Numbered from the stretch's first letter, positions 29,948-33,574 are shown. The stretch: DNA of 64,000 nucleotides from Coxiellaceae bacterium (GCA_044359385.1 JBIKMG010000001.1:13363-77362), one strand, 5' to 3'. A program made the numbers and translations. Notes: generated by a model not told the origin, from the sequence alone.

Positions 29948-32900
29948 TCACGAGCTAGGATAGACAACCCCTACTGCTTTGGAAGGAAACTCTTCTGTAT
30001 TGCCTGAAGCTAAGAGGCTAACACCCACTAAAGAGCCCGTTGCACGCGGATGAATAGATTTTTCAACCTTGTTCTTTAATCTAAGTGTCGATAAGCTATC
30101 TGTTAATTTATCTGTTAATGTTCTAAACTCATCCGGTTTCTGCATGAATCCTTCGAGAAGACCTTGATAGACAGCTGCCAATTTTTTAACACGATGAAAT
30201 GCATTTGAAATCAGAATGAATTGTAGTTGTCTATGAATAACAAAAGGCAGGTCATAACCCGAAGAATGAGGATCTTTCTCTAAGTCATTCCATAGCTTGA
30301 AAGCTTCCGTAAGCACACCAGCGGAAAAAGTACTGACATCATAAGAAAAACTACCTGTGTCATCTGCTCGCCATTGGTTAACTGCATTATAAATACACGC
30401 CTTTAACAGATGTCGCATAGATTTAGAAGAAACTGTCGAATTAACGCTTGTGCTTCTACGATAAAGACGTCCCTGATCTACGACTCCCTTTTTTTTCCAT
30501 CTAAAATTATCGCCCAGACAATAGCTGACTTCATAACCTGACAGCATCAGTGGTAACTCATTATTACCTTCATCAAAAACCACATCAAAACTTATCCCTT
30601 CTGAATCGTGCAATTCAACTAATGAAAAATTTTTCCTGCAAAGCGTTTTTTTTATTCCCAGGCCATTTTCAGCACTAACCCGAATTATATCGCGCATATC
30701 ATATGGGCATTTAGTCATATGACAATCTATATCATTTCCAAACGGAGAAAATTTAATTGCTATTTCTGAACCCGGCTGCGCCTGAGTCAGCAATGGAACG
30801 ATATGACGCATCATAACAGCATCCGCTATTTGATTCACGAGCTGCATCGGATCTGTTGCAGACTCCAATTCGCTTAATAAAGCGTGTACTGTCTTTTCTG
30901 TTGGGTTTAATGGCAAAAAAGTGATTGACCTTGTTAACGCAGCTTCTGCAGACAGATCTTCTGCAGATTCTGGAGCAGCAGCCCCTCCCCCTGCTTCTAA
31001 AGATGCTTCGCTCGACTTTAAAAGCTCAGGATTAATCTTGAAACTATCACAGGCTTTAATCCATAAATCTGATTCCAAAGGAGGACAATCTGAAGAAGCC
31101 TTCGCCCCACCACCCATGCTTGGAATACTCACCCCTTTTATGTTGCCTGCTTTCATTACTAAAGAAATTTGAGTATTAAACAAGCTAATACGCCGATCAA
31201 GCAACACTTGTGCCTCTGGCCTGCAATTGATGTATAAAGATACAATTACTTTTTCTAGATTTTTAGCTATTTCCAGCGCATTATCTTTTTTTCTTAACCA
31301 ATTCTGAAATGGCATTTTTCTATCTAGACATTCCATACGTAAGACTACTAGATTTAGCAGCCACTTTTCAGCAGCCTCTATTTTTTTCTTATCGATCGAT
31401 TCAGCTTGGTTATCTCGATAGTCCATTATCGTATGCGTTAATAATGAAGCCGACCATGCCAAGATTTGCTGTAATATCGCATACCGAGAACAATCCTCTT
31501 CACTGACAGGCTCAGGTAACAACGCATCCGATAAGACTATTTCCTTTCTTTCTTCATTCTTTTTTGTTGGCTGAAGATCAGACAATTCAGTGATGTTAAA
31601 TATTTCATATAAATCTTGATAAAATTTCTTGTATCTATCCTCTCTTGATTTAGTATTCCAACTGAAAAGAAAACCATTGGATAACCTACACTCGATCTTT
31701 GTAGGTGCCCGACCGTTAGGTAAGGTAATAAAAATCTCTCCAGAGCTCGGCTTATTTTTAGCGTTTGGATCATTATGTGCAAAAACCGTCATTTTCATAT
31801 TGGGAATGATTTTTTCAGGAACAATCTTTTCTCTCATCAATCCTAAATGGACATACCAACTCCTAAGCTCTTCGTTTATAACTCTTAATCTTTTTTTAAC
31901 GTTAGGTTCTTGATAATTTACTAACGGTGATTGCGCTACAGCAACCTCTATTTTTTTGAGTAACGCCTCAATCCAAACATGTTGTTCAGATAACGGCTCA
32001 TGATCGACATCTCTACTTTGACCATCCTTTTTGATAACTCGAGTTGCCTGAAGCGTTAAACTAGATGGCTCAGTACTCTTCGTATTTTGTGAAAGCACGT
32101 AGACAAGTTTAGCTTGGACAGCCTGAATCGGGTTTTCGGGATCTTCGCTTGAAATATCAACAGCATCGGTCCAGGGTAAATAAACATCTCCCGTTTTTTT
32201 GAGTGCTATAAAATCTCTCACAGACATGAAACAAGTCGCTTTCGGTTTTAAAGGGACTGCTCCCTTTGCTGCTGCTTTTTTTCCTGGTTCAAATTGAATT
32301 TGACAGTTGACTAATACGTGAGAACGCGGAGTATCGTGCAAAATGGCTTCTTTCATAATTGCTTGAATATTTTCCAAGCCCTCTCTTGTGAAATATTCAA
32401 TCCATATTCTCCCTGCCAAATCCAGTTGAGTCTGCCTCCCAGGAAGTAAGGGGAGGCTATCGCGAATCTTTCGCGGTATCCTCTCACCCCGAAGATAGAA
32501 TGCGGGTAACTCCCCTACATGCAAAGGCAAGATATTAACTGTCTTATCAGACATCCTAATTGCTAAGATATTATCAGCACACTGCAAACCTAATTCAAAA
32601 TCATCAGCCGTAGGTAAACAGTTTCCACCCTTCAATGAGGTATTAAGATCACCTCCTATCATAGTTTCTCTTACATCAATCTCAAGGACTTGAACCAATT
32701 TAAAAACTGCTTCAGAAAGCCATCGACTTAAATTTCCTGACAATACCTCCGGTGTGAAGAACGATTTATTTAAAAAAGGTAAGTGAAGCGACAGATAAAG
32801 CGTTCGTTTTTTTTCATCAAACGCAATTGTTGTGCAATTATTTATAGCGGACAAATCTTCATTCGTACCAAGCTGCCGACGAAGAACAGACATGAAAGAC

Positions 32901-33574
32901 AGCTCAAATGAAAAGAAGTCGATGGCTGATAATTTTTGAGGTGACACAATTCCTGTTTGTGAAACAAAATCACCTTCATCGATGACAGCCCCCTTTTTCC
33001 TCATCGCTTCTTCTAGAGGAACACGGCTTTCATTCTTAAACCCTCTATCCGGACCCTGAATAATACACGTACCTTCACCACTAATTTTTTGTATATACTC
33101 AAATAAAGTAGGATTAGCTTCTTGCAAAAAAACCGTTGTACCTCGCGCAACAAAAAAAGAAGCTCTACAGGCATTCCAAAGCATTCTTGCCTGAAACGTT
33201 TTGAACGTATCTGTTTTGAAAAAAGCATTATTACAGAGCTCCGGTATAATCCATTTTTCTGTCTCGCCATCCAACGATAGCTTTTCAAGTTCTCCAGAAA
33301 TAGCGGGCACCAAAGCATTAAAACTAGCCACGCGTAAATCTTCTGAAGCGACTACGGCATGATCAGATTGAACAAGGGGATTTTCTTGACGGTCAAATGA
33401 TTCTGCGACATGAGCATCAAATTCCTTCAAAAAATTAAAAAAATCTTCCGAAGACATGGCAGCAACTTCTTCTTTTACAGACTGAAAATCTCTAGCTAAC
33501 TCTTCTAAAGCATCTTTCCTCAAAATGCAATTTACCAAGGACTCTGATGAAAACAACTTTTCAAAACGACTCAT
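29948..33574 (-). CDS. Giant 1208-aa effector-like protein with an N-terminal endonuclease/exonuclease/phosphatase (EEP) family domain (5-phosphatase/sphingomyelinase-like)
   Basis: EEP motif series: RVASFNALVP, TVFLQEANP, IGGDLNTSL, MSDK. The remaining 800 aa or so include a Gly/Ala-rich linker and regions with no recognisable homology. No signal peptide. Confidence 0.55.
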   Translation of the reverse strand: MSRFEKLFSSESLVNCILRKDALEELARDFQSVKEEVAAMSSEDFFNFLKEFDAHVAESFDRQENPLVQSDHAVVASEDLRVASFNALVPAISGELEKLSLDGETEKWIIPELCNNAFFKTDTFKTFQARMLWNACRASFFVARGTTVFLQEANPTLFEYIQKISGEGTCIIQGPDRGFKNESRVPLEEAMRKKGAVIDEGDFVSQTGIVSPQKLSAIDFFSFELSFMSVLRRQLGTNEDLSAINNCTTIAFDEKKRTLYLSLHLPFLNKSFFTPEVLSGNLSRWLSEAVFKLVQVLEIDVRETMIGGDLNTSLKGGNCLPTADDFELGLQCADNILAIRMSDKTVNILPLHVGELPAFYLRGERIPRKIRDSLPLLPGRQTQLDLAGRIWIEYFTREGLENIQAIMKEAILHDTPRSHVLVNCQIQFEPGKKAAAKGAVPLKPKATCFMSVRDFIALKKTGDVYLPWTDAVDISSEDPENPIQAVQAKLVYVLSQNTKSTEPSSLTLQATRVIKKDGQSRDVDHEPLSEQHVWIEALLKKIEVAVAQSPLVNYQEPNVKKRLRVINEELRSWYVHLGLMREKIVPEKIIPNMKMTVFAHNDPNAKNKPSSGEIFITLPNGRAPTKIECRLSNGFLFSWNTKSREDRYKKFYQDLYEIFNITELSDLQPTKKNEERKEIVLSDALLPEPVSEEDCSRYAILQQILAWSASLLTHTIMDYRDNQAESIDKKKIEAAEKWLLNLVVLRMECLDRKMPFQNWLRKKDNALEIAKNLEKVIVSLYINCRPEAQVLLDRRISLFNTQISLVMKAGNIKGVSIPSMGGGAKASSDCPPLESDLWIKACDSFKINPELLKSSEASLEAGGGAAAPESAEDLSAEAALTRSITFLPLNPTEKTVHALLSELESATDPMQLVNQIADAVMMRHIVPLLTQAQPGSEIAIKFSPFGNDIDCHMTKCPYDMRDIIRVSAENGLGIKKTLCRKNFSLVELHDSEGISFDVVFDEGNNELPLMLSGYEVSYCLGDNFRWKKKGVVDQGRLYRRSTSVNSTVSSKSMRHLLKACIYNAVNQWRADDTGSFSYDVSTFSAGVLTEAFKLWNDLEKDPHSSGYDLPFVIHRQLQFILISNAFHRVKKLAAVYQGLLEGFMQKPDEFRTLTDKLTDSLSTLRLKNKVEKSIHPRATGSLVGVSLLASGNTEEFPSKAVGVVYPSS

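Follow-up and report, generated by a model that had tools for sequence, protein, structure and literature searches.

The P0001 Gene and Its Product

The 64,000-nucleotide stretch of DNA analysed here, from a Coxiellaceae bacterium (GCA_044359385.1 JBIKMG010000001.1:13363-77362; the whole stretch is called the window below), carries on its minus strand a large gene whose product, P0001, is an orphan multi-domain protein. A first-pass annotation, made from the sequence alone, had placed a 1208-aa protein at 29948-33574 and had read its N-terminal part as an EEP domain of the 5-phosphatase/sphingomyelinase type. An uninterrupted open reading frame (ORF) is found there, running from ATG to stop over 1208 codons plus the stop codon (29948..33574, minus). 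A Shine-Dalgarno-like GAGGGA lies 8 nt 5' of the start, and a scan for promoters and terminators around the gene gave nothing above chance. The setting is one of ordinary housekeeping genes: P0001 is encoded between glnS-ribF-murJ, with a 200-bp spacer between it and glnS, and a TPR-methyltransferase/mltB/rodA/mrdA cluster. Because an unchanged copy of the ORF is present on independent metagenome contigs and a strain variant with 99.7% DNA identity is intact, the gene is real and intact and not an artefact of assembly.

Between strains (the window versus L166/L167) 7 of the codon changes in the gene are nonsynonymous and 2 are synonymous (dN/dS ~1), and two of the nonsynonymous changes, F1196P and A1200L, fall within the last 13 residues of the protein. 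The flanking glnS and TPR-methyltransferase genes each show 0 nonsynonymous and 4 synonymous changes between the same strains. The small counts for P0001 fit relaxed or diversifying selection.

The N-terminus of P0001 is not hydrophobic, in agreement with the earlier statement that the protein has no signal peptide, and no transmembrane segment was found with a 19-residue Kyte-Doolittle window (maximum mean 1.15). Neither internal repeats or duplication within P0001 nor paralogy with the other giant ORFs of the window could be detected. The product is a cytoplasmically made, soluble, multi-domain protein, and it is a member of a two-member orphan family.

A Single Homologue, P0005

Among ~15 billion proteins P0001 has one detectable relative. 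This protein, P0005 (1248 aa), was the only relative returned by an exhaustive HMMER search over 1.84e9 representatives (E 1.4e-27), and it is encoded in a different genome of like G+C (0.418 vs ~0.41) and in a different neighbourhood. Identity to P0001 is ~26% overall, 30% across the core described below, and 28% over the 400 aa of the N-terminal half that can be aligned. Both proteins share one architecture, down to the Gly-rich linker and C-terminal domain. A word-indexed search of 5.8e9 clusters with P0001 returned the query alone, and such searches with P0005 and with the two-sequence alignment likewise returned only the queries; scans of genomes, metagenomes and viral contigs revealed no relatives, and the P0001 gene is absent from the GTDB species representatives scanned. 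The P0001/P0005 family is tiny but real.

Searches of the curated libraries were empty. Neither Pfam nor NCBIfam matched P0001 at E<=10, and PHROG, PADLOC, Pfam and NCBIfam gave nothing usable on the whole protein, on its sub-segments or on artificially "un-permuted" constructs. PDB sequence searches with P0001 and with three sub-alignments produced chance matches only (RadA, pinoresinol reductase, arfaptin and Cro). The earlier remark that the tail has no recognisable domains is borne out, as none of these libraries recognises any segment. Pfam Exo_endo_phos_2 matched a P0005 fragment weakly at the GDxN motif (E 0.24; 11.7 bits, where the cut-off is 27.4). The positive controls on Pfam, taken from E. 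coli, scored 130 (XthA), 83 (YbhP) and 60 bits (YafD).

Motifs and Conservation in the N-Terminal Half

All four motif strings quoted in the first-pass annotation were located in P0001: SFNA at aa 84, FLQEANP at aa 149, GGDLNT at aa 307 and SDK at aa 342. Alignment with P0005 makes it possible to see which motifs are conserved. Invariant in the two proteins are S70-D71-H72-A73, N86, C114-N115-N116, V148-F-L-Q-E152-A, G195, I209-V-S211, H264-L-P, G308-D309-x-N311, T322, D324, L490-V-Y492 and D524-H525-x-P527-x-S529.

The most conserved segment, with 35% identity to P0005, is an N-terminal extension of aa 50-103 (33266..33427, minus). It holds an invariant PLxxSDHAxV (aa 66-75) and an invariant LRxxSxNxLxPA (aa 80-91), the latter containing SFNA; in P0001 this second stretch reads LRVASFNAL and resembles strand beta1 of ExoIII, FVSFNING. 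It is followed by the N-terminal part of the EEP-like core, aa 104-330 (32585..33265, minus), which was delimited by colinear hhalign blocks against the YbhP family and a pan-EEP profile. The core comprises, in order, LCNN116, a helix at 124-143, FLQE152A, G178xKN, GAVxxEG..IVS211, TLYLSLH264LP, a helix at 275-297, IGGD309LN311 and PT322xD324F.

Several of these elements correspond to named EEP motifs. FLQEA (aa 149-153; 33116..33130, minus) is invariant and aligns to the LQE of the YbhP family, so that it represents motif II, with E152 as the predicted metal-binding Glu. VFLQE152A and the helix that precedes it are aligned both by a sub-profile and by the full profile, and the best site in all 1208 residues for a sub-profile of the YbhP beta1-alpha1-LQE region is aa 124-152. 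The invariant H264-L-P (32777..32785, minus) is the counterpart of the EEP "xHL" motif, equivalent to the VHL of YbhP and to Tyr109 of ExoIII (NGYFP); in P0005, HLP is aligned together with GDFN by both the ExoIII and the pan-EEP hidden Markov models (HMMs). GGDLN (aa 307-311; 32642..32656, minus) provides D309 and N311 of motif IV (GDxN) and is the best local hhalign match to YafD, XthA and the YbhP family. The series TLYLSLH264LP ... IGGD309LN311, which covers motifs III and IV, is invariant in the two proteins. For the Asn of motif I there are two invariant candidates, N116 in LCNN, which hhalign chose, and N86 in LRVASFNAL, which is ExoIII-like by eye.

Beyond aa 330 the similarity drops to 18% identity over aa 331-485 (32120..32584, minus), a segment regarded as a putative insertion into the EEP domain because EEP motifs flank it on both sides; a low-confidence AlphaFold2 model places mixed helices and strands here. 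The putative C-terminal strands of the domain follow at aa 486-545 (31940..32119, minus), where KLVY492VL resembles the LDRIYV of motif V and VD524-H525-EPLS resembles the SDHAPLS of motif VI. At the motif V strand P0005 reads ADELVY, with an Asp two positions ahead of the conserved Leu.

Profile Comparisons with EEP Proteins

We used E. coli XthA, YbhP and YafD from the annotated K-12 record, all strong matches to PF03372, as EEP templates, together with a YbhP-family alignment of 17 non-redundant sequences from a metagenome scan and an ExoIII set of 5 sequences from other loci. For hhalign the query was a two-sequence profile of P0001 and P0005; the HMMER tests were targeted (Z=1, filters off).

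In local hhalign comparison with the YbhP family, the top match of the two-sequence profile places GDxN on GDxN (P 0.0014), with a z of 5.9 relative to column shuffles, none of which (0/100) reaches the score. Global alignment with relaxed gaps gave 48.7 against 16.2 +/- 6.5 for column shuffles, again with 0/100 reaching it. The global alignment consists of seven colinear blocks: LCNN with TxNiH; helix+FLQE with helix+LQE; GxKN with YGrN; GAVxxEG..IVS with NAVYPEGHHGNAVLS; TLYLSLHLP with IHVMCVHLG; a helix; and IGGDLN with VAGDFN. When the order of 15- or 30-column blocks was shuffled instead, 2-4 of 100 shuffles reached the global score (p ~0.02-0.04). Since so few do, the order of the motifs, beyond their mere presence, is better than chance. 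The colinearity with the EEP fold on which the first-pass annotation had staked its proposal is therefore seen in the profile alignments.

P0005, which had no part in the original proposal, gives the clearest HMM results. It matches the pan-EEP HMM with E 2.5e-6 and the YbhP HMM with E 8.9e-4 (0/2000 shuffles reach the score in either case), and the independent ExoIII HMM with E 1.9e-4 (3/2000). The alignments span the xH/YxP motif, the helix and GDxN; that with ExoIII covers P0005 aa 263-329. The significance of the EEP assignment comes from this homologue and from the two-sequence profile, and the assignment of P0001 runs through its homology to P0005, because P0001 alone is not significant. 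The earlier claim of an N-terminal EEP domain stands in so far as the motif residues are invariant and colinear and P0005 is matched by EEP HMMs; the strings in P0001 that had suggested it would not have sufficed. With these comparisons in hand, the N-terminal half is most likely a very divergent domain of the EEP superfamily.

The Final Asp-His Motif

In the first-pass annotation the string SDK (aa 342-344; 32543..32551, minus) was taken for a degenerate form of the final SDH motif, with a His-to-Lys change at the general-base position and an uncertain catalytic status as the consequence. We reject SDK as motif VI. It lies in the 18%-identity segment, the least conserved stretch of the N-terminal half, and reads A-R-H in P0005; a string not conserved in the sole homologue is best regarded as a chance occurrence.

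The same annotation had raised the possibility that another His supplies the base, and the alignment offers an invariant, colinear D524-H525 as well as the N-terminal SDHA with H72, which is invariant too. A tblastn search of the 64-kb window with E. coli YbhP placed YbhP aa 209-250 on P0001 aa 482-531, with a weak E of 0.63, and paired KLVYVL...VDHEPLSEQ of P0001 with LDRIYV...SDHAPLSAE of YbhP. We then scanned for completions of the core, appending each of 175 55-residue blocks of P0001 to aa 104-330 and scoring against two templates. With the YbhP template the blocks containing D524-H525 came first (60.3 vs 45.8 +/- 6.1), tied with a gap-rich linker block; with the pan-EEP template they took ranks 1-7 of 175 (66-70 vs 55.3 +/- 5.7). 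Over the two templates, completion by aa 486-545 corresponds to z ~2.4-2.6. The most economical arrangement is probably a colinear EEP domain of aa ~104-545 with a ~155-residue insertion after the GDxN strand, in which H525 is the predicted general base. The catalytic His of the P0001 domain is thus probably present.

The N-terminal S70-D71-H72-A73 (33356..33367, minus) lies upstream of the EEP core and may be a coincidence, or it could be interpreted differently. If the domain were circularly permuted, or a duplication remnant, SDHAxV (aa 70-75) would be the catalytic Asp-His strand, moved from the end of the canonical fold to a place before the first strand, LRVASFN86AL, and joined to it by a short turn; D524-H525 would not be catalytic. 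SDHA with V at +2 matches the canonical SDHAPV exactly, is invariant within the 35%-identity segment, and stands 14 residues before the ExoIII beta1-like strand (FVSFNING compared with RVASFNAL). In APE1 and ExoIII structures the last strands lie in the same sheet as the first strands, and such an arrangement is sterically plausible. SDHA is also the top local match in the whole of P0001 to a C-terminal sub-profile of YbhP, but the match is weak (P 0.09) and extends over four residues. Appending the N-terminal block after the core lifts the hhalign score from 46.1 to 52.9, a small gain over shuffled blocks (z ~1.7 or less), and in the completion scan with the pan-EEP template the N-terminal SDHA blocks come next after those of D524-H525 (63-66; 8th-12th of 175, z ~1.7). 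However, the colinear aa 486-545 outscore them with both templates, no internal duplication is detectable, and aa 42-62 are helical in the low-confidence model. No description of a circular permutation or duplication remnant of the EEP fold turned up in a narrow literature search, which cannot establish absence. We therefore consider a permuted domain quite unlikely.

A second question is whether an EEP fold, once accepted, need be active. The domain could be a catalytically dead module for binding or scaffolding, with any activity residing in the C-terminal domain, which has an invariant acidic cluster of its own around GNDIDxH. The absence of the motif V Asp from P0001, the two possible positions for each of motifs I and VI, and the great distance of the sequence from all active EEP families would agree with this. 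On the other hand, Glu152, His264, Asp309, Asn311 and the Asp-His pair are invariant at ~26% identity, as would be expected if an active site were being maintained, and the SDK argument for inactivity falls away because that string is not the motif. A dead enzyme thus appears most improbable; given the conserved Asp-His at 524-525, nothing in the sequence calls for regarding the domain as dead.

A ClsB-Like Neighbour of P0005

In E. coli a ybhP-clsB-ybhN operon has been documented (PMC9241728; bioRxiv 10.1101/2022.03.11.483950). At the P0005 locus (L082) a ClsB-like PLD gene (3057-4265) is followed directly downstream, in the same orientation, by the P0005 gene (4395-8141). The PLD protein has two PLDc_2 domains and is 30% identical to E. 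coli ClsB (E 1e-41). Among the YbhP-family loci that we compiled (L086-L165), a ClsB-like gene adjoins 67 of 80, including members down to 37% identity. The adjacency of P0005 to a ClsB-like gene provides a hint, from a single genome but independent of the sequence comparisons, in favour of a YbhP-like EEP protein, and it points towards phospholipid chemistry.

The metagenomic loci also show that the YbhP-ClsB pairing reaches well beyond the Enterobacteriaceae; at one of them (L140) the order is reversed, PLD then EEP, as at the P0005 locus. Two genes downstream of P0005 (L082 9832-12939, plus) lies a second PLD-family gene of that neighbourhood, encoding a 1035-aa protein whose N-terminus resembles a signal peptide and which carries GLUG motifs and a PLD-like domain. 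A YafE-like methyltransferase gene is also found upstream of P0005. The window has a methyltransferase gene next to P0001, but its product shows no specific similarity to the one beside P0005, and we rejected a conserved methyltransferase association.

Weighing the EEP Assignment

A number of observations weigh against reading the N-terminal half of P0001 as a colinear EEP domain. For neither P0001 nor P0005 is there a significant match to a curated profile (Pfam, NCBIfam) or to a PDB sequence. P0001 alone gives E 0.042 and 0.11 against the EEP HMMs, scores that 119/2000 and 463/2000 of its shuffles reach, and it is missing from the pan-EEP match list. Relaxed gap penalties were used for the global hhalign scores, whose calibration comes from in-study shuffles only, and the significance of the block order is modest. 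Motif I may lie at N86 or N116 and motif VI at H525 or H72, and the Asp of motif V is not conserved in P0001, which has A488/K489 where YbhP has D218. AlphaFold2 returned low confidence, with a pLDDT of 35 for aa 1-460 alone and 30 for aa 1-1200 with the homologue. As for context, there is no PLD gene within the window, and the ClsB neighbourhood is found in the P0005 genome only.

Taken to its end, this line of argument says that there is no EEP domain at all, and that LQE, HL, GDxN and DH recur by chance in an unrelated alpha/beta fold. The empty Pfam, NCBIfam and PDB sequence searches at any usable threshold, the non-significance of P0001 by itself and the failure of AlphaFold2 to converge on a fold would all be expected. 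Moreover, the motifs behind the scores are the very ones that prompted the hypothesis, which must also invoke a 155-aa insertion and two ambiguous motifs. The low pLDDT is, however, expected from alignments of one or two sequences, and as a weak consistency check the order of secondary structure in the low-confidence model, a beta-hairpin, HL, a helix and beta-GDxN, fits an EEP fold around motifs II-IV. Against a chance recurrence, P0005 was not used in proposing the fold, and its pan-EEP and ExoIII matches extend over 60 residues, the connecting helix among them. The seven blocks occur in order, with the native block order beating 96-98% of permuted orders, and the ClsB-like gene beside P0005 agrees with the pairing that is conserved for YbhP and ClsB. 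We regard the absence of an EEP domain as unlikely.

The best explanation, in which we place somewhat more belief than doubt, is that aa ~104-545 of P0001 form a very divergent, colinear EEP domain of an orphan family, with SDK irrelevant to catalysis. The conservation of the motifs, their colinearity and the HMM matches of P0005 are observations, from which the fold, the catalytic activity and the substrate are inferred. An EEP fold in any form, counting the colinear, permuted and dead-enzyme variants together, is a good deal more secure and may be called likely, on the basis of two sequences and home-made profiles.

The Middle Region, Linker and C-Terminal Domain

The first-pass annotation had left an uncharacterised tail of 800 aa. 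That the tail is unrecognised holds; its length does not. As the EEP-like region probably extends to about aa 545, the uncharacterised remainder amounts to ~660 aa, and it includes a conserved C-terminal domain at aa ~896-1075. The middle region (aa 546-815; 31130..31939, minus) is 21-24% identical to P0005 and is alpha/beta and then helical in the low-confidence model. The Gly/Ala-rich linker noted earlier is present, with GGGAKASS at aa 821 and EAGGGAAAPES at aa 860; in the P0001/P0005 alignment it spans aa 816-895 (30890..31129, minus). Within this otherwise variable linker P0001 and P0005 share an unchanged GGGAK (aa 821-825; window 31100-31114), which does not constitute a Walker A motif.

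The C-terminal domain with its helical tail (aa 896-1208; 29951..30889, minus) was delimited by BLASTP, the P0005 alignment and the low-confidence model. BLASTP matches aa 927-1072 to P0005 with E 5e-9. Invariant residues are G935, F942xPxGNDIDxH952, D990 and F996-D997; aa 896-1075 are conserved and alpha/beta, and aa 1013-1189 are predicted to be helical. Neither the middle region nor the C-terminal domain has a family or PDB match. The C-terminal ~310 residues are a second conserved module, with the invariant acidic signature GNDIDxH...D...FD. The acidic cluster falls on predicted strands, which suggests a second metal-dependent site, possibly an active site of its own. We examined GNDIDxH by eye for fit to metallophosphatase, HAD, FIC, GT-A DxD and Pol-beta nucleotidyltransferase motifs; none agreed with the canonical spacing or had profile support. 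Pol-beta is attractive, but the G[GS]-x9-13-DxD spacing and the secondary structure fit poorly, and the nucleotidyltransferase comparison is retained as speculation only.

A more far-reaching proposal would make P0001 and P0005 a new bifunctional family, confined so far to two uncultured, probably Gram-negative and possibly host-associated bacteria, in which a rearranged EEP domain with an N-terminal SDH strand is joined to a second metal-dependent, possibly nucleotidyltransferase-like C-terminal domain, both acting on a substrate derived from host or membrane phospholipid. We find this proposal very doubtful.

Other Genes of the Window

The window encodes BamD, MlaC and LspA, as well as an RluD above its equivalog cut-off, and the source genome looks like that of a Gram-negative bacterium of gammaproteobacterial type. 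The matches of its GlnRS reach 55-59% only and are spread across many phyla, and no rRNA gene occurs in the window. Convergent with the P0001 gene, and adjoining it in all strains, is a gene (28093-29781, plus) for a 562-aa protein with many TPR repeats and a class I SAM methyltransferase domain of the BioC/UbiG-like kind.

Several giant ORFs carry eukaryote-like domains. One (3738-8063, minus; 1441 aa) has a histone-deacetylase domain at aa 207-444 (E 3.5e-10) and ~1000 residues without a match, and belongs to no NCBIfam family. Another (14350-19692, minus; 1780 aa) has a NUDIX domain at aa 440-564 and a weak match to DUF2608 at aa 48-157, with no assignment for its other parts. In a third (42352-47217, minus; 1621 aa) a SecA-like DEAD/P-loop motor domain is found together with TPR repeats and an OTU cysteine protease at the C-terminus. 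Window 42957-47544 is missing from another strain of 99.8% identity (L166 1-2200), in which just a 196-aa OTU gene is left; the two flanks overlap by 13 bp at that junction. The presence or absence of the SecA-like part is due to this 4.6-kb indel between strains. The window contains no genes of a secretion system.

Proposed Function and Relation to Known EEP Proteins

The EEP domain of P0001 appears to retain a Glu, an Asp/Asn and an Asp-His, that is, the metal-binding and general-base set. With these residues it should work as a Mg2+-dependent phosphoester hydrolase, if the predicted fold is correct. The leading guess for its substrate would be a phosphodiester of a phospholipid head group, because YbhP-type EEP proteins are operon partners of ClsB and the P0005 gene immediately follows one for a ClsB-like protein. 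None of the evidence separates lipid from nucleic-acid substrates.

Compared with the E. coli YbhP, YafD and ExoIII types, P0001 resembles YbhP and ExoIII in its motif series. The order of motifs in YbhP is the same (TxN, LQE, NAVxxEG..LS, VHL, helix, AGDFN, (LDRIY), SDHAPLS), and the closest local likenesses are FKTFQARM...VFLQE in P0001 to FTAFNRRF...VCLQE, and VDHEPLSEQ to SDHAPLSAE. A clsB-like neighbour is common to YbhP genes and P0005, whereas the P0001 gene has neither a clsB nor a ybhN neighbour. Unlike YbhP, with its 83 bits, P0001 is far below Pfam detection; it also has ~100 extra N-terminal residues, the ~155-aa insertion after GDxN and ~660 further residues fused to the domain, and it does not conserve the motif V Asp. 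E. coli YbhP itself has no known function. As to ExoIII/APE1 (XthA), the ExoIII HMM aligns P0005 to "vtvinvYvp...pvvilGDlnis", and SDHAxV resembles SDHAPV. The P0001 family differs in giving no full-length alignment, in having a His in place of the Tyr of NGYFP, in offering no evidence of DNA binding, and in its other architecture and size.

IPP5c proteins and neutral/bacterial sphingomyelinases belong to the EEP superfamily and share its chemistry of Mg2+, Glu, Asp/Asn and Asp-His. Those such as OCRL, INPP5B and synaptojanin, and the sphingomyelinases, act on lipid head-group phosphoesters, as the ClsB context would favour. Yet nothing ties P0001 to them over the nuclease or deadenylase branches, and a regular-expression search for the inositol 5-phosphatase signatures GDxN[YF]R and P[AS]W[CT]DR[IV]L found neither in P0001 or P0005. 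The lipid-directed effector suggested in the first-pass annotation is a reasonable guess, for which the ClsB-like neighbour of the P0005 gene is the one hint.

P0001 can also be compared with the Dot/Icm effectors of Legionella and Coxiella. Like them it is a very large orphan with no Sec signal, modular and with a divergent enzymatic domain; it is fast-evolving relative to its neighbours, and the window holds giant ORFs with HDAC, NUDIX/DUF2608 and SecA-like/OTU domains. Unlike them, it lacks homologues among the described effector families, and the window has no genes for a secretion system. Small residues abound in the last 30 aa of both P0001 and P0005, which is not diagnostic of translocation. 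A host-directed secreted effector fits the giant ORFs with eukaryote-like domains and the fast amino-acid change, a view drawn from genome context that is no proof.

Implications

With two sequences and no structure, we regard P0001 as a lead rather than a discovery. For annotation, the lesson is that the apparent His-to-Lys signal of a "pseudo-enzyme" was spurious, the product of short-string matching with no homologue to compare. If the assignment is correct, P0001 and P0005 would represent an EEP branch that has diverged beyond the reach of all curated profiles, with an architecture not seen elsewhere, in which an N-terminal extension, a 155-residue insertion and ~660 residues of unrecognised domains accompany the predicted fold. 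The family would then help to gauge how much the DNase-I-like fold can diverge with its catalytic residues still in place. For the uncultured bacterium, P0001 would be a candidate host- or membrane-directed phosphodiesterase, encoded in a neighbourhood rich in eukaryote-like giant proteins, and the link to ClsB through P0005 could help in finding the function of the widespread YbhP proteins.

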